DNA from: Escherichia phage aaroes
DNA length: 51,662 bases
Reading direction: 5' to 3' (one strand)
Sequence record: NC_049826.1
The notes below the pieces were generated by a model. It saw nothing but the letters and a program-made list of their open reading frames with translations, did no database searches and was not told the DNA's origin. The translations under genes were made by a program, and so were the position numbers. Positions 3,758-40,934 of this stretch are shown one piece after another; position 1 is the first letter of the stretch, and each line of letters begins with the position of its first letter.

Positions 3758-5341
3758 TTACCCTAGCAATGTTGGATTTACGAAAACAACGCCATTAATC
3801 ACACAAATATAATTTCTTTCCTCAAGCATCGGAAGCAGTTGCGTTTCCATGCGCTTCATTACTCCAGCCTGACCAACAAAAGGCTTAACTTTTCGTGCAG
3901 CCTCATATATGGCGCGCACATTCAAGATTCCCTTATTAGCCTTTCCGTGTCGAGTGATGATCTCGATTAGTTTACCCATTTCAGCATCATCACCAGCATA
4001 GCCAGAAGCGTTTGCGGCGCTAATGTATGTTTTGCTCAACTCGCTAAACATCAGCAATGCTTCCTGAACGGTTTCAACCTCAATCTCTTTCGACTTCTGA
4101 GGGTATCCACCAGGATTAAACCAATTGCGGATAGTGTGCAAAACCGAAGCAATCCTGATCACCTGCTTATCCATTTTGCCAAGCGCACCTCGCAGCATTG
4201 TATGCGAATACTTTCCGCCATCAGCAAGGTGCGGTTCCATCTCCTGACGAGCCATGTTAAGCACTCGCATTGCGGATTTGCTGATCTTAAGCTGGATGTT
4301 TGATTCGCTCATGATGTTATGGATCAGCTTAAAATATTGGCTTTTCAGTTCTCCATCAACAGGCTCATAAGTCGAATCACCGTTATCATCAACAAATTTT
4401 CGACGACCTAAAAATGATTCTTCACGCACAAGCAAATAACGCTCACTCACACCGATACCGCGCGATCCTGCATCCATGATGGCATTAATTGTTTCATCCT
4501 GGGCAATTACTGCCATGCAGCCAAGAGCTTTAAAACTCATGTTATTGTCTGCGTTTGCGCGAGCTATAGAAACATGACCGTGATCCCATGCTTTTAGCAC
4601 AAGTTCGCTGTTTGTTTTGCGTTCGCTATTGGCATATGTCAGACCTAAAAGGCTGTTAATACTCGTTGCCTCGTCTGAAATTACAGCAAAGTTACCCTGG
4701 CGATTGTTGATTCTTGCAAGTCCTTCCGGCGTGGTATCGGACACAGGGAAAACAATGTCACACATCTTTTCAAGTTTTTCTTCAAGATCTTCTTTCTCTT
4801 GGTATAGCGATTCCATATCAGCGCCAGATCGCTCGCTTTTCATCTCTTTTGCAAGACCTGCCAACTTTGCCTGAATCTTTTTTCGTTCCTTCTTTCGCTG
4901 ATCATTAATTCTTTCTACTTCAGCAACCATAGGAGCAAGTGCCAGGCTGTTAACGGCAGATTTACCAGTTGAAGGAGGCTGGCTTGTGACAACATAAAGA
5001 GCTGTCGGCTGATCCGTTCCGTGATACTCAACCGTGAAGCGTCCAAGCATTGCAGCAGACACGCATCCGATAAAATGCATATAGGCCGATGATTCAGGGA
5101 ATTGAACAGAGCGAGCAATGTTGCGCGCCAACTTACCAACAACATCAACATCATTGCCAAGAGAAATTACAGGGTAGCGATCGTTTCCGTTATTAACATC
5201 ATTAACCTCACCCCAAAAGCTGGACGATTGACGGTATCCGTTAGCCTGAATGGATACGCGCACCGGAGACAATCCTTGCGCATCAGCTAATTCGATAATT
5301 TGTTTTGGTGTTAGTTTATTGGTTTCAAACGAAAAATTCAT
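3758..5341 (-). CDS. P-loop NTPase of unknown function (527 aa)
   Basis: AAGGAG RBS before ATG 5341; Walker A-like QPPSTGKS and Walker B-like AVISDEAT; charged coiled-coil segment after the P-loop. Confidence 0.55.
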   Translation of the reverse strand: MNFSFETNKLTPKQIIELADAQGLSPVRVSIQANGYRQSSSFWGEVNDVNNGNDRYPVISLGNDVDVVGKLARNIARSVQFPESSAYMHFIGCVSAAMLGRFTVEYHGTDQPTALYVVTSQPPSTGKSAVNSLALAPMVAEVERINDQRKKERKKIQAKLAGLAKEMKSERSGADMESLYQEKEDLEEKLEKMCDIVFPVSDTTPEGLARINNRQGNFAVISDEATSINSLLGLTYANSERKTNSELVLKAWDHGHVSIARANADNNMSFKALGCMAVIAQDETINAIMDAGSRGIGVSERYLLVREESFLGRRKFVDDNGDSTYEPVDGELKSQYFKLIHNIMSESNIQLKISKSAMRVLNMARQEMEPHLADGGKYSHTMLRGALGKMDKQVIRIASVLHTIRNWFNPGGYPQKSKEIEVETVQEALLMFSELSKTYISAANASGYAGDDAEMGKLIEIITRHGKANKGILNVRAIYEAARKVKPFVGQAGVMKRMETQLLPMLEERNYICVINGVVFVNPTLLG

Positions 5342-5630: not shown

Positions 5631-6013
5631 TTATACATAGCCTCAAACAAATGACAGCCACCAGCGGAAAATCCTACTTCTTCGCGGTATAGCGTCCAGC
5701 GGTCGCCAGCTTCATCAAAAACATAACCAGCAACAGCACCAAGCGCTCGCCCTTGCTCAATCTGGTAACGCTTTCCTTCTTTGAAATGTTTTTTGCACGG
5801 TATCTTGTGATCTACAAAGGTGCATTTAATTGTTTTTGTCTTGATATGACGATAGTCAGACTCAACAGCGTTTTGCCATTTGCTACCCTTTGTAATGCTC
5901 TTTACCTGGAATTGCTCCAACTCGATCACATCATCGCTACCAGAAATTTTTTCGTATACGGTTTTATAACGACCGTTCATCAAAACGTTGGTTTTATTGC
6001 AGATAACTTTCAT
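5627..6013 (-). CDS. hypothetical protein (128 aa)
   Basis: AAAGGAG RBS before ATG 6013; follows a cassette copy. Confidence 0.5.
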   Translation of the reverse strand: MKVICNKTNVLMNGRYKTVYEKISGSDDVIELEQFQVKSITKGSKWQNAVESDYRHIKTKTIKCTFVDHKIPCKKHFKEGKRYQIEQGRALGAVAGYVFDEAGDRWTLYREEVGFSAGGCHLFEAMYK

Positions 6014-9428: not shown

Positions 9429-9513
9429 CTTACCGTCTCCTGATGGGTGTCTCGTTTCGATGTGTGTAATGTACCCGATCAGGCGGATTCAGTTTTAACA
9501 AAAAGTGCTATTT
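9429..9513 (-). promoter_or_regulatory. early promoter-leader cassette copy
   Basis: Minus strand: AAATAGCACTTTTTGTTAAAAC, TACATT, leader CACACATCGAAACGAGACACC, RBS. Confidence 0.5.
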
Positions 9514-9514
9514 C

Positions 9515-9703
9515 TCAACTGGCGATTATTCCACCTATTCCATTAATCAGGAATAACAGGAATAACTCATTCGAGATCACCTGGATTGTGAGATCTTGAG
9601 TTTGATCAATTTTAATCAGGTGATTAACTTTTTGTGTGGAGGGGATAGAGAAACGCGATCCTCTCGCATCCTTTCCGGCAATCCTGGCGCGCAACATGTT
9701 CAT
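9515..9703 (-). CDS. hypothetical protein (62 aa), possible first gene of the leftward early block
   Basis: ATG after GGATGG; sequence is repeat-rich; stop precedes the cassette core. Confidence 0.3.
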   Translation of the reverse strand: MNMLRARIAGKDARGSRFSIPSTQKVNHLIKIDQTQDLTIQVISNELFLLFLINGIGGIIAS

Positions 9704-9719
9704 TATGTTTCCATCCGTT

Positions 9720-10060
9720 CACGCAAATGAGCCTCCGCAGTTCTTCCACGTTTCATGCTGTCATGCACACAAAAGAAACAATGTAAAATCTATATAAATA
9801 CACATTAAATCAATAAGTTATTTATATATGTATTTATATTTGTTTCTTATTGTTCTTGTTGTGTGATGGTTATTGGTATATGTTGCGATTTTTGTGTTGG
9901 TGGATATTGATTGTTTATTGTTCGATTTGGTTGATGATTATGGTTGCTCATGGTTGCGTATGATTCTTGATGTATTTATGTATATATCCGCGAAAATTCG
10001 TGAACAGCCACACAGCCAAAAAACATGGTGAGGATTCTTTTTAAATCATGCACTTAACTG
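9720..10060. other. AT-rich, GT-iteron-rich non-coding control region at the strand switch
   Basis: About 340 bp without a credible ORF; repeated TGATT/TGGTT/TGTGTG units; shares ATAAATCAATAAGTTA and TGTT(C)TTATTGTT with 39480-39800. Confidence 0.5.
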
Positions 10061-10111
10061 TGAATTTTGTTTCCGCGCAATCTCCACACGTATAGCAAAC
10101 AATTAGAACGC

Positions 10112-10140
10112 TTGACATCGACACGGCGCGGTGGCAACAT
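10112..10140 (+). promoter_or_regulatory. candidate sigma70-type promoter for the rightward early block
   Basis: TTGACA, 17-nt spacer, CAACAT, about 40 nt upstream of the first plus-strand ORF. Confidence 0.35.
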
Positions 10141-10179
10141 TGCAACCACCAACAAACAGAGCAAATAGGAGTTACTCTT

Positions 10180-10641
10180 ATGACTATGACAAGTAAAGAA
10201 TTTTGCGATATGTTGCGAGTTAATGCAGCCTCACTAGCTAACGGTGATGTTAGCGAACTGCAAATCAAGGAGCTTGACTTGCAATGCAATATTGCGCCGG
10301 AAGACTTGAGGAAAATTAACGCCTCATACATCCGAACGATTATGAATCGAACGCCGGAGGTGAAAGCCGTTGGCGTGGTGAAAGTTGAACGCGTTCGAGG
10401 TGATGCGGATATTCCTGATTGCTATCGCGTAACCATTAACAAGAATCCAAAGCGCCGATTGCTGACAGATGAAGAATTGCCAAAACTTGAAAGTAAGTGG
10501 CGAGCAAAGTTTATTGCTCAACTGCTTAAAACACAGCCGCGAATCAGCGATCTGGAAGGTGAGCGCCTGGAAGGTGCAGCAATCGCACTTGAGCGAATGA
10601 ATGAAATGCTTAACGAGATGGTAAAGATGGAGGATGAATAA
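10180..10641 (+). CDS. hypothetical early protein (153 aa)
   Basis: AGGAG RBS then ATG 10180. Confidence 0.5.
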   Translation: MTMTSKEFCDMLRVNAASLANGDVSELQIKELDLQCNIAPEDLRKINASYIRTIMNRTPEVKAVGVVKVERVRGDADIPDCYRVTINKNPKRRLLTDEELPKLESKWRAKFIAQLLKTQPRISDLEGERLEGAAIALERMNEMLNEMVKMEDE

Positions 10642-10904
10642 TGGCTATGATGAAAATTCGCAAAGCAACAGATGATTTCATCCGCAGTAATGCGGAAAGC
10701 GGTCGCCTGTACGTTGCATTCGTGGAGCGCAAGAGAAAGCGCGGAAAGATTGTTGCGACTGAGCGGTTATTCAAGATGAAGCCGAGAACTGAATGCGAAT
10801 GCAAAAAGGATTGCGGTTTTTACTTCGGATGCCGTTGCAGCACGATAGAAAACGCGCGAACGCTCATAGATGAAGGAAAAGTATACTTCAATCCGGCAGA
10901 ATAG
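10641..10904 (+). CDS. hypothetical protein with C-terminal Cys cluster (87 aa)
   Basis: GGAGGA RBS; ECECKKDCGFYFGCRCS zinc-ribbon-like end; stop TAG inside the repeat core. Confidence 0.5.
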   Translation: MAMMKIRKATDDFIRSNAESGRLYVAFVERKRKRGKIVATERLFKMKPRTECECKKDCGFYFGCRCSTIENARTLIDEGKVYFNPAE

Positions 10905-10976
10905 CACTTTTTGTTAAAACGCCAGGTGCGAATCCTGGCATAATAGCCTCATCGAAACGAGATTGAGGAAAACAAA
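10901..10976 (+). promoter_or_regulatory. early promoter-leader cassette copy (canonical)
   Basis: ATAGCACTTTTTGTTAAAAC, hairpin GCCAGG-tgcgaat-CCTGGC, CATAAT, leader ATCGAAACGAG, GAGGAAAACAAA, ATG. Confidence 0.6.
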
Positions 10977-39143: not shown

Positions 39144-39371
39144 TTAAAGACTGCAATCAGCGTTTTTAAAGTTGTCAATGCTTACCCACTGAAAATTAAA
39201 CGGATAGCCAGCCTTAACAAGAGTGCGTTCGCCAACTCGTTTTACTCCAAAAATAGCAACTGAATACTGCATACCGCTATTTTCATAAATAGCCGTGCAT
39301 TCACGTTTAGGCATATTTGCGCAACCAGTCAGGGTTACGGCTGCAATCAAAACGGCGATTAACTTTTTCAT
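39144..39371 (-). CDS. cor: small outer-membrane lipoprotein, Cor-like superinfection-exclusion candidate
   Basis: 75 aa, signal peptide with lipobox LTGC; AAGGAG RBS; size, lipobox and location resemble Cor of T1/phi80/N15. Confidence 0.5.
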   Translation of the reverse strand: MKKLIAVLIAAVTLTGCANMPKRECTAIYENSGMQYSVAIFGVKRVGERTLVKAGYPFNFQWVSIDNFKNADCSL

Positions 39372-39447
39372 GTTGGTGTCTCCTTCGTTGTTGTTGGTTG
39401 CAACTATACACGATCTTACAGCAGGCGTTTAGCAAAAAGTGCTATTC
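39372..39447 (-). promoter_or_regulatory. early-type promoter cassette for the lipoprotein gene (core variant GAATAGCACTTTTTGCTAAA)
   Basis: Core, TATAGT, leader CGAAGGAGACACC before ATG; here the TAG in the core is not a stop of any upstream gene. Confidence 0.45.
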
Positions 39448-39479
39448 TGTTCTTTTTGTTCTCCTGCGTTCTCAAATCT

Positions 39480-39800
39480 GCGGAGGCGTAAATTTAGAGT
39501 AAAAAGTGAGCAATAACAGAGCGCGATATATACAGATAAATATATATACATACATATAAATCAATAAGTTAGTAGTATATATATTAATGTTTGTTCTTTA
39601 TTGTTATCTGTGTTTTGTGTGATTTTGTGTGTCTGGTGATTTTTCTGTGATTATGCATGTGTCAGTGGTTATGTGTGTCTATATATCTATATCCGTCGCA
39701 AATTGAGGAACAAGAGAACAAAAAGACAACAAAGATATTTATCAATCACTTACATGTAAGTTTTGTTATCCAAGTTGGCGAGAACGTTGTTAAAACAGAA
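39480..39800. other. second AT-rich, TGTG-iteron non-coding control region (homologous to 9720-10060)
   Basis: No ORF; shares ATAAATCAATAAGTTA (39556-39571) and TGTTCTTTATTGTT with the first region; repeated GTGTGATTTT / GTGATT units. Confidence 0.5.
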
Positions 39801-39815
39801 AAAACAAAATAACTA

Positions 39816-39843
39816 TTGACTAAACGCATCAAATAGCTACAAT
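39816..39843 (+). promoter_or_regulatory. sigma70-type promoter for the recombination module
   Basis: TTGACT, 16-nt spacer, TACAAT, about 30 nt upstream of ATG 39873. Confidence 0.5.
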
Positions 39844-39872
39844 GCAGACATACCAACCAATGAGGGCAAATC

Positions 39873-40934
39873 ATGAATAAGTTTATGGCGTACACCAGCG
39901 AAGAAATGAGTAATGAGCTTTATCACGATCCAGAAGCGTGGACGGCTGATTATGTTAGTGGATCAAGCCTGGCCGAGATTTACAGCACATGCCCGGCGGC
40001 GTGGAAGTTCAAGCCTCGTGACGATAAGAGCAAGGCGCTTGTTTTCGGTACGCAGTCGCATACCAACTTTGAGAGCAAGGAGCTTTTCGAAAAAACATAT
40101 CGCCGAGCGCCAGCGCCAGAAGACTTTAAGGATCTGATAACTAGCCAAACTGCGCTTGCCGCAAAACTGAAATCATTTGGCCTGAAAGGTACAACCGGAA
40201 AGACTTATCCAGACCTTATCAAAATGATGGTAGATTGCGGAGAAGACCTTAACGTCATGTGGTTAATCGACATGATCGCAGAAAGCCAGGCCAGGGCCGA
40301 CGGAGTGCAGTTAATCGACGCTAAAGACTACGACGCTTGCGTTGCAATGCGCCAGGTTCTGGAATCAATACCGGAACATAACGCATGTATGAATAGCAAG
40401 ACAGCACAACGTGAATTATCGTTGTTCGGTGAAATCAACGGCGTAAAAGTCAAAGTGCGATGCGATCACGTTGACGTAACAAAGAACGTAACAGCAACTT
40501 TGATTGATGGTTACGATGAAAAAGGTCAACCGATTTGCCGCGATATTATTTATCCAGAGGCGATTGTGATCACTGACTACAAAACAACAATGAGCGCTAA
40601 TCCGGTTGAGTTTATGCGCCTGGCTTACAATCACGGCTATTATCTTAAAATGGCGTTGCAATGTGATTTATTCAGGAAAGCGTATCCAGAAGAAAAGCGA
40701 CCTATAGTTGTGCGCCTGTTAGCGCAAGAGAAGAAAGAGCCTTATTTGCCGCTGGCTTTCCGCATGAATAGCGAGCAATTAAAGATCGGGCGCATTCAGT
40801 ACATGAGCGTGATTAACCAGTTTTCCATGTGCCAGCAGCATGACGTTTGGCCTTCGTATTCAAACGGTGAGCCGGAGGTTTGCCTTGATACTCCTGATTG
40901 GGTGCGCCGCCAGTTTAAGCAATATCTTATTTAA
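39873..40934 (+). CDS. PD-(D/E)XK exonuclease (RecB/Cas4/YqaJ-like)
   Basis: IVITDYKTT motif (D-x-K core) with upstream acidic residues; sits in the recombination module with Erf and SSB. Confidence 0.5.
   Translation: MNKFMAYTSEEMSNELYHDPEAWTADYVSGSSLAEIYSTCPAAWKFKPRDDKSKALVFGTQSHTNFESKELFEKTYRRAPAPEDFKDLITSQTALAAKLKSFGLKGTTGKTYPDLIKMMVDCGEDLNVMWLIDMIAESQARADGVQLIDAKDYDACVAMRQVLESIPEHNACMNSKTAQRELSLFGEINGVKVKVRCDHVDVTKNVTATLIDGYDEKGQPICRDIIYPEAIVITDYKTTMSANPVEFMRLAYNHGYYLKMALQCDLFRKAYPEEKRPIVVRLLAQEKKEPYLPLAFRMNSEQLKIGRIQYMSVINQFSMCQQHDVWPSYSNGEPEVCLDTPDWVRRQFKQYLI

Follow-up and report, generated by a model that had tools for sequence, protein, structure and literature searches.

Paired AT-rich modules that end in early promoters are candidate replication origins or early control regions of T1-like phages

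Escherichia phage aaroes (NC_049826.1; we analyzed all 51,662 nucleotides, hereafter the window) carries two similar non-coding regions, which we will call modules A and B. A comparison to GenBank phages with BLAST showed that the window is the complete genome of a T1-like siphovirus (Drexlerviridae, Tempevirinae, Hanrivervirus) and that its nearest named relative is phage grams. Module A (9694–10179, plus strand) has early open reading frames (ORFs) on the minus strand on one side and a plus-strand gene that begins at 10180 on the other. It supplies the rightward early operon with its upstream region, promoter, and leader. Module B (39440–39872, plus strand) lies between cor (39144–39371, minus strand) and recE, the gene for exonuclease VIII (39873–40934), which is followed by erf and ssb. 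It comprises the upstream region, promoter, and leader of recE-erf-ssb.

By sequence comparison, A and B are full-length paralogs of about 430–490 bp, with their downstream promoters included. We drew from IMG/VR 45 loci that precede recE homologs, aligned them, and made a profile from the B region alone. This profile matches 9694–10162 of the window over model positions 14–430 (E = 4.6e-32), and it also picks up region A of about 30 relatives. A search of the window with the profile gives two copies of the module and no more. Aligned directly, A and B have a local alignment score of 90, as compared to 22 ± 2.8 (maximum 34) for dinucleotide shuffles and 31 ± 6.3 (maximum 56) for shuffles that preserve local composition. 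A preliminary description of this DNA had reported that 9720–10060 and 39480–39800 share several short sequences. The similarity is real, but the homology is far longer than those stretches and takes in the whole of each module. The shared 16-mer that it reported is an exact match of 15 nt (TAAATCAATAAGTTA, at 9806–9820 and 39557–39571); the position before it is T in A (9805) and A in B (39556). The TGTT block said to follow is there, as TGTTTCTTATTGTT in A and as TGTTCTTTATTGTT in B.

The same description had both regions as non-coding, AT-rich, in the same orientation, and covered by no annotation, and we agree. Its statement that they are the two largest non-coding stretches is consistent with gaps in the ORF list (9704–10179 and 39372–39872), although a crude ORF mask puts short ORFs inside both. 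That they lie where transcription diverges is true of A; it is true of B only through the minus-strand gene cor, and in phage TLS, which has no cor, B lies between two plus-strand genes. The description overlooked the canonical sigma-70 early promoter that ends each module as well as the pac region that adjoins module A. A search of the whole window against Rfam gave no match at the gathering score.

Both modules are widespread. Module B is conserved in all 45 of the loci upstream of recE and is recognizable in 178 GenBank phage records, including TLS and phages of Citrobacter, Salmonella, and Klebsiella. A query with module A matches both paralogous places in many GenBank records, and phage T1 itself has both regions. 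Homologs of module A were found in 30 related loci; relatives' loci were retrieved via their flanking genes. By these alignments and searches, the modules are kept as a pair across the Drexlerviridae. (A scan of IMG/VR for the exact 15-mer gave about 120 contigs, mostly unrelated AT-rich sequences, and was dropped.) We searched E. coli genomes and plasmids for module-like DNA, which would be a sign of a satellite or another replicon, and found no match. We also considered that the modules might be mobile elements similar to miniature inverted-repeat transposable elements. We rejected this: both copies are at fixed loci family-wide, and the homology runs past the inverted arms into the promoter. 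While searching GenBank, we noticed about 20 records of "Campylobacter phage" (MG0656xx; host given as Campylobacter jejuni) that are 80–94% identical to the window genome. The host label of these records looks doubtful, and they may be coliphage contaminants.

The two modules share a common order of elements. First come an outer-left GTT array, a CCGC/GGCGTAAAT box, an A/C-rich AACA stretch, a (TA)n core, an inner-right TTGTT...TGTT array, and a G+T-rich spacer. After the spacer come more (TA)n, an outer-right arm that is inverted, a second box of the IHF type, an AAC array, and the sigma-70 promoter. All of these features are described on the plus strand, except that the cores are given no strand.

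In module A, the outer-left array (9697–9723) has GTT at 9698, 9707, and 9717, at steps of 9 and 10 bp, and ends with GTTCACG; its TGTT columns are conserved. In the CCGC box (GCCTCCGCAG, 9731–9740), conservation is at least 95% for the CG columns of the A alignment and at least 70% for the adjoining C's in the weighted track. The inner-left A/C-rich AACA repeats (CACACAAAAGAAACAATG, 9766–9783) mirror the inner-right TGTT array (TTTGTTTCTTATTGTTCTTGTTGTGTG, 9839–9865), and the AACA columns of the one and the TGTT/TTGTT columns of the other are conserved. Between them lies the (TA)n-rich core (9784–9843, about 85% A+T), a candidate DNA-unwinding element. A 40-nt inverted repeat (9766–9805 and 9826–9865) is 75% complementary. 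The first IHF consensus site (9808–9820) is at the center of the palindrome in the core and forms the loop of a predicted hairpin. The spacer (9843–9985) is 80% G+T on the top strand, and its length differs among relatives. The outer-right arm (9988–10026) contains CCGCGAAAATTC, GTGAACAG, and then more AAC/ACA repeats, in the opposite orientation to the left arm, with conserved CGGAAAT..AACA columns; its copy of the inverted repeat is CGTGAACAG at 9999–10007. IHF-like box 2 (AATCATGCACTTA, 10044–10056) has one mismatch to the consensus, and its AAATCA...ACTTA columns are conserved in both the A and the B alignments. The promoter-proximal AAC array (CACAC, CAAAC, AGAAC; 10072–10111) reaches the -35 hexamer of the predicted promoter P_A (TTGACA-N17-CAACAT, 10112–10140). 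The TTGAC and TAtAATGCA columns of P_A are conserved, and relatives have TTGAC ... TATAATGCA.

In module B, the outer-left array (39448–39474) has GTTCT at 39449, 39458, and 39468. A 16-nt inverted repeat (39451–39466 and 39711–39726) that is 94% complementary joins it to the outer-right arm (GAGGAACAAGAGAACAAAAAGACAACAAAG, 39705–39734), which is inverted relative to the left arm and whose copy of the repeat is GAGGAACAAGAGAACA. The box GGCGTAAAT (39485–39493) is related to the CCGC box of A, and its CGTAAAA columns are conserved in the B alignment. The (TA)n-rich core (39525–39590, about 80% A+T) is again a candidate DNA-unwinding element and is enriched in TATATA; it contains IHF consensus site 1 (39559–39571). 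In the inner-right TGTT array (TGTTTGTTCTTTATTGTTATCTGTGTTTTG, 39588–39617), conservation across the family reaches at least 95% in the TTGT and TGT columns, and TTGTT and TGTTT are prominent in the weighted track. The spacer (39590–39690) is 80% G+T on the top strand. The columns of IHF consensus site 2 (TATCAATCACTTA, 39740–39752) are conserved, and from this site it is about 100 bp to the presumed start site of P_B downstream. The promoter-proximal AAC array (GAGAAC, TAAAAC, AAAAAC, ATAAC; 39780–39813) abuts the -35 hexamer of P_B (TTGACT-N16-TACAAT, 39816–39843), which was found by a promoter scan with 10/12 matches. In module B of Shigella phage 2019SD1 (NC_049820), a relative, we noticed about 190 bp of extra DNA within the G+T-rich spacer, so the spacer tolerates large insertions.

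The significant repeats in the modules are GTT or AAC triplets at 9–11 bp from each other, in arrays that are inverted around the core and extend to the promoter. We asked how often non-redundant homologs have a chain of at least three GTT (or AAC) at steps of 9–11 bp and compared this to composition-matched shuffles. GTT chains are present in the outer-left array of 78% of the 23 non-redundant A homologs (0.6% of shuffles) and of 48% of the non-redundant B homologs (1.4% of shuffles). AAC chains are present in the outer-right arm of 18–30% of homologs (about 1% of shuffles) and in the promoter-proximal array of 38% for A and 40% for B (0.9% and 1.1% of shuffles). Within the spacers, the distances between GTTs peak at 9–10 and 19–20 bp (z = 3–6; in B, at 9–10 and 18–19 bp). 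The short repeats that the preliminary description listed fared unevenly. TGATT is in mild excess, with 3 copies per spacer versus 0.8 and 0.5 expected from spacer composition, but TGGTT is at expectation and GTGTGATTTT has a single copy in the genome. The iterons that it proposed were not found: Tandem Repeats Finder gives only repeats of 9–14 nt with 2 to 3.6 copies and low scores (31–45).

TGTT/AACA is the only core of the repeats that is conserved family-wide. The flanks vary by lineage (GTTCAC/GTGAACA, GTAACA, GATAACA, GTCAACA, or GAAACA; TGTAACA in T1), and the left and right arms of one phage tend to have the same variant in inverted orientation. For the A arms, the longest shared inverted word averages 6.72 within phages versus 6.22 between phages (p ~ 0.015), and for the B arms 8.95 versus 7.40 (permutation p ~ 0.0005); relatedness inflates the significance of both comparisons.

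The cores are the easiest DNA in the genome to melt. By nearest-neighbor energy, the least stable 100-bp window of the genome is in the core of B (39526–39625, z = 5.2) and the second least stable is in the core of A (9781–9880, z = 4.8). The modules hold the two least stable windows at both 100 bp and 200 bp (z = 4.6–5.2); the next window has z = 3.0–3.5. The core averages 84% A+T across homologs. Plus-strand copies of TATATA are concentrated inside the modules: of the 16 that this genome has, 9 are there, and the modules of T1 hold 15 of its 22 copies and those of TLS 10 of its 17. The modules also contain the two most G+T-rich 100-bp windows of the genome (83% for A and 80% for B, versus 50 ± 6.5% for the genome). 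Across homologs, the spacer is 81–170 nt long and its mean G+T fraction is 0.68 in A and 0.70 in B. Both the AT-rich core and the G+T skew are present in every homolog we examined. The third least stable stretch of the window, 1687–1851, has an IHF consensus match (1790–1802), lies upstream of a gene that starts at 1831, and holds a copy of the shared 15-mer with 3 mismatches (1710–1724). The module profile does not match it, so it is not homologous to the modules.

IHF site 1 has the same sequence in both modules (AATCAATAAGTTA), which is a perfect match to the IHF consensus WATCAANNNNTTR. Three of the genome's nine perfect matches are in the modules (9808–9820, 39559–39571, and 39740–39752). 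A perfect match stands at the aligned position in 17 of the 29 homologs of A and in 14 of the 45 homologs of B. Box 2 is 56 bp (A) or 64 bp (B) upstream of the -35 hexamer, which fits the roughly 80–180 bp from the start site of IHF-assisted promoters. We also considered a conserved cruciform centered on the IHF box, but rejected it: z is -4.4 to -4.9 for A, -1.2 for B, and about -1.3 on average for relatives. Boxes for DnaA with one mismatch are at chance levels (53 versus 57.7 expected genome-wide, with one in A and none in B).

P_A and P_B are predicted to be canonical sigma-70 promoters by their match to the consensus, and they are conserved family-wide, although P_A of this phage scored below the threshold of the promoter scan. 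In P_B, TATTGACTAAA and GCTAnAATG show little or no variation among members of the family. Both promoters fire away from the cores, and neither the promoter scan nor inspection by eye found promoter-like sites within the cores or facing them. This makes an origin primed by a transcript, or a gene for a small RNA, unlikely.

P_A and P_B are homologous to P01 and P51, two of the three predicted intergenic sigma-70 promoters of TLS. Supplementary Table S1 of the TLS paper lists these three canonical promoters: P01, P51 (recE), and P57 (regulator/primase). In TLS, all of the other transcription units are preceded by a 21-nt repeat (aaATAGCACnnnTTGnTAAAA) whose function was not known (TLS paper). 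In the window, the equivalent of P57 has no module attached. It is at 48148–48176 on the minus strand (TTGAGT-N16-TATAAT with a TG extension), and it drives the genes for a Cro/YdaS-like regulator and the primase. A 21-nt element stands back-to-back with this promoter and points toward the ResIII/Helicase_C helicase, which probably starts at the ATG at 48200 and not at the TTG at 48133. We found 22 copies of the 21-nt element (ATAGCACnnnTTGnTAAAA, ATAGCAC...TAAAA) in the window, such as 9492–9511 (-), 10901–10920 (+), 39426–39445 (-), and 48123–48142 (+). It is always oriented with transcription, and it usually ends 17–19 nt upstream of a -10-like hexamer (gGTATATT, gGCATAAT, or GCTATAAT). Its TTGnTA is about 22 nt from the -10-like hexamer, which is too far for a normal -35 hexamer. 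It looks like an activator box that takes the place of the -35, by analogy to the MotA-dependent middle promoters of T4. Only P_A, P_B, and the minus-strand promoter near 48150–48180 lack the element.

Which proteins might act at the modules? The gene tables of T1, TLS, and grams, and the window proteins that we scanned, contain no annotated initiator. The phage primase bears the Zn-ribbon motif of primase-helicases. The DUF3987 "DNA helicase" (T1 ST9 family; 3761–5341, minus strand) has an AlphaFold2 model with a predicted local distance difference test (pLDDT) of 89. Its best matches in the PDB are subunits of eukaryotic MCM2-7 and archaeal Orc1/Cdc6 (Foldseek E down to 5e-6, template modeling score of about 0.35), and its C terminus has a winged-helix topology. 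The model indicates that T1-like phages have an MCM-like AAA+ replicative helicase.

The gene immediately after P_A (10180–10641, plus strand) encodes a DUF7174 protein, a candidate site-specific binder of the arm repeats. TLS and most relatives have DUF7174 at the equivalent place, as does T1, though weakly. In a model of the protein (pLDDT 80), an N-terminal domain that resembles a winged helix is followed by two long C-terminal helices. It is hypervariable among phages that are otherwise nearly identical, and its variants track the variant of the right-arm repeats. Module B has no adjacent DUF7174 gene, and the arms of module B are constant while DUF7174 varies. We consider DUF7174 to be the leading candidate for the binder, with the helicase and its C-terminal winged helix second; DUF7174 is a lead and not a result.

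We propose that modules A and B are a pair of replication origins, coupled to transcription and fused to immediate-early promoters, and that each is a cis-acting site for the assembly of a nucleoprotein complex. We give this proposal a probability of roughly 40%. A site-specific protein would bind the helically phased GTT/AAC arrays, inverted to either side of the core, from a single face of the DNA. Where a lineage retains the consensus, IHF would bend the DNA at the center of the (TA)n core. Host RNA polymerase, leaving the core from P_A or P_B, would send negative supercoils back, and the (TA)n core would melt. The MCM-like helicase and the primase would then be loaded at the melted core, with the G+T-rich strand exposed. 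What the sequences show is the duplication of the modules, their conservation and anatomy, the instability of the duplex, the strand skew, the consensus IHF sites, and the promoters; all of the binding events, and the replication function as well, are inferred. The most meltable DNA of the genome, a central IHF site, inverted phased arrays, a skewed flank with no promoter, and a helicase-primase set with no annotated initiator all fit a site of DNA opening with a strand-specific event. In particular, a skew of 80% G+T with no inward promoter detected argues for a strand-specific role at the level of DNA.

Our proposal is also suggested by two known systems. Phage P4 has two separated cis regions, ori and crr, in one small genome. 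The type I iteron of P4 (TGTTCACC) has the same core as the GTTCAC/GTGAACA(G) of this lineage, and the short repeats of both occur in both orientations. Like P4, these phages would have a replicon that is built on a phage primase and a helicase ending in a winged helix, and in which no separate initiator is annotated. SPP1, a Bacillus siphovirus of the pac type, has two distant origin-like copies, oriL and oriR, with repeats beside an AT-rich region; the copies are bound by the initiator G38P, and oriL is inside its gene. The features listed above, the match of the repeat core to P4 ori/crr, and the two-copy origin of SPP1 are together why we rank the origin pair first. The differences are substantial. 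P4 has 6–10 near-identical octamers per site, whereas here each array has 2–3 degenerate copies. The octamer-type copies are GTTCACG at 9717 and the outer-right copy in A, and GTTCTC/GAGAAC in B; copy number and identity are far below those of P4. (In TLS, 3 of the 5 copies of GTGAACA are within the modules.) P4 ori and crr are not among the five least stable 100-bp windows of P4. P4 alpha is one polypeptide, whereas here two genes encode the primase and the helicase, the latter of which is MCM-like (DUF3987) and has no P4-type annotation. Furthermore, the winged helix of the helicase does not co-vary with the repeats, and sequence searches for a link to the origin-binding domain of P4 alpha found none. 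As for SPP1, there is no homology of sequence or protein, and binding is known for SPP1 while the modules are known from sequence.

Other kinds of origins can be compared as well. In iteron replicons such as pSC101 and the R6K gamma ori, IHF acts within an AT-rich segment and the initiator gene adjoins the origin. Here too, there is an IHF consensus inside the AT-rich core, and a gene for a winged-helix-like protein directly follows the promoter of module A. Unlike the iteron replicons, however, the modules lack iterons of 17–22 bp and DnaA boxes, and module B has no DUF7174 gene beside it. DUF7174 itself has a single winged-helix-like domain with weak fold scores and has no detectable homology to Rep_3/RepE. 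T4 and T7 likewise have no dedicated initiator; at oriF and oriG of T4 and at the primary origin of T7, a promoter lies beside an easily unwound segment and the transcript primes replication. In those origins, the unwinding element is downstream of the promoter, whereas the cores here are upstream of P_A and P_B.

Several observations weigh against our proposal. The repeats have only 4–7 bp of conserved core, Tandem Repeats Finder found no direct repeats of about 17–22 bp (classical iterons), and the whole genome has no perfect DnaA box (TTATNCACA). The IHF consensus has been lost in many lineages, and site 1 of the T1-type and TLS-type B modules has at least 3 mismatches. Strong palindromy of the core is confined to module A of this phage. 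The homology takes in the promoters, so "duplicated promoter region" would be a more economical description, and module B of TLS is not flanked by divergent transcription. The candidate binders raise doubts as well. We rejected two phage DNA-binding proteins as determinants of the repeat variant: in the window phage and two relatives, whose module A repeats differ, the last 80 residues of the DUF3987 helicase are identical, and so is 100% of the Cro/YdaS-like regulator (47636–48109, minus strand). The helix-turn-helix protein that the preliminary description suggested as the binder thus cannot explain the differences in repeats among these phages. For DUF7174, the Foldseek matches are weak (E of at least 0.035), although they are mostly to winged-helix DNA-binding proteins. 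The DUF7174 gene is physically linked to the right arm, so they would be inherited together whatever the function. Finally, the repeat variants of A and B can differ inside one phage, which makes a single highly specific binder unlikely. The earlier suggestion of an origin or of a binding array for a regulator is still fair, given a duplicated AT-rich module with repeat arrays, a consensus IHF site, and the two most meltable stretches of the genome; the partition sites that were also suggested find no support in any of our results.

The main alternative is purely transcriptional, and we consider it almost as probable as the origin pair. The modules would serve two immediate-early sigma-70 promoters as extended regions for upstream activation or as operators. 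Bending by IHF, for the most part at box 2 some 100 bp upstream of the start site, and a phage or host regulator on the arrays would first stimulate P_A and P_B and later shut them off in step, and the AT-rich core would be a flexible or supercoil-sensitive element, as in ilvPG. This would explain why a canonical promoter closes each module, with sequences that are invariant or nearly so across the family; why the AAC array extends to the -35 hexamer; why both modules conserve box 2; and why the promoter and the upstream region are homologous as a single unit. The gene for a winged-helix-like protein is the first after P_A, which is the typical position of an autoregulator. And because the other transcription units use the 21-nt element, P_A and P_B form a distinct regulatory class. 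The upstream IHF sites of lambda pL are a parallel. In phage Mu, an IHF site just upstream of the early promoter has arrays of short sites for winged-helix proteins on either side (O1-IHF-O2/Pe). This region doubles as the transposition enhancer, so that transcription control and replication or transposition share a single stretch of DNA, as we suggest for the modules. However, the Mu region has one copy, lacks a (TA)n core of the unwinding type and a G+T-skewed spacer, and works with unrelated proteins. A purely transcriptional role seems harder to reconcile with an architecture that is conserved over about 300 bp beyond -110, which is unusually long for a bacterial promoter, or with the third early promoter, which has no module. 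It leaves unexplained the extreme instability, a G+T skew of 80% over a variable length, and inverted arrays that are 245–290 bp apart. Also, the Cro-like regulator does not co-vary with the repeat variants. The origin pair and transcriptional control are not mutually exclusive, and we place the origin pair first.

A more specific form of the origin proposal would account for the variation in module A. Most relatives in Hanrivervirus align to the window from 9400 only to about 9855–9878, which is inside module A. In most of them, the right half of module A and the DUF7174 gene are a different cassette, and the version in the window is common to only three records, at about 94% identity. This break in homology implies that module A is a mosaic recombination junction. 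The Drexlerviridae might thus have a two-copy origin whose specificity comes from a swappable cassette in module A (the hypervariable DUF7174 and the matching mini-repeats), which would recruit the MCM-like helicase to the IHF-bent (TA)n core. We think it unlikely that this scheme is right as a whole. Such an exchange would be comparable to the O/ori cassettes of lambdoid phages, built of unrelated parts and fused to immediate-early promoters.

The junction and the nearby pac region also raise the question of packaging or recombination. The non-coding stretch on the left of module A (9515–9693) is next to pac: the GenBank records of T1 and TLS both open at a position that aligns to about 9586–9600 of the window, and position 1 of TLS is the restriction-mapped pac (its first HindIII site is at 5876, which matches the published 5,882 bp). 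The 62-codon ORF on the minus strand at 9515–9703 is probably the pac region and not a gene. This stretch contains an inverted repeat (ATTATTCC...GGAATAAC) and four GATC sites within 83 bp (9575, 9592, 9604, and 9657). We rejected the clustering of GATC as a mark of an origin, as the modules are GATC-free and the cluster is in the pac-proximal stretch.

IHF aids the assembly of terminase at lambda cos and P1 pac. Similarly, IHF-bent AT-rich DNA in module A might aid terminase at pac, with module B as a secondary or relict site, or the core might be a homologous "linker" for cassette exchange and recombination-dependent replication. We think that either role is improbable. The openings of the T1 and TLS records and the mapped pac of TLS are about 100–200 bp to the left of module A, the homology with most Hanrivervirus relatives ends inside A with the right half and DUF7174 swapped, and module B is directly upstream of recE-erf-ssb. 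But the pac-proximal stretch is outside the duplicated unit: the B profile stops short of 9515–9693, and the position equivalent to pac has no counterpart at B. Module B is about 22–30 kb from pac with no pac-like neighbor. And these roles do not explain the phased arrays or why B is more strongly conserved than A.

Equally improbable are arrays for global proteins of the host (H-NS or Fis on the AT-rich DNA, or proteins of the OmpR/ArcA type on TGTT repeats 10–11 bp apart) that would sense host physiology or titrate a factor: the modules have IHF consensus sites, TGTT/AACA at 9–11 bp phasing is the only universally conserved repeat core and resembles ArcA sites (TGTTA-N6-TGTTA) and OmpR-type direct repeats, and the flanks vary while the two phage proteins compared above are invariant, but those flanks differ by lineage among phages of the same host species, which a variable partner encoded by the phage would fit better.

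The authors of the 2024 reannotation of TLS looked for an origin but reported no candidate repeats "anywhere else in the genome", and the origin was likewise not found in the SU57 paper. In the accessible literature, we found no description of the paired modules, the phased repeats, their link to canonical early promoters, or an origin for the T1 family, although the genome papers for T1 (2004) or Rtp (2006) might mention them. What is new here is the paired modules, the phased repeats, and the tie to canonical early promoters; as a kind of element, a phage origin or an early control region is already well known.

T1 belongs to the seven classical T phages, and its family is abundant, is present in therapy collections, and is notorious as a laboratory contaminant. 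Yet the replication origin and the early regulatory circuit of T1 have never been mapped. The modules are the best candidates so far for the unmapped origins or early-gene control regions of T1-like phages, and two precisely bounded targets that are found family-wide, along with candidate factors, make both ideas testable. If DUF7174 is the cognate binder, then a domain of unknown function would gain a role, and the breakpoint in module A would be an exchange of specificity cassettes. If the modules' role is only transcriptional, then they would define the immediate-early class of promoters in T1-like phages.

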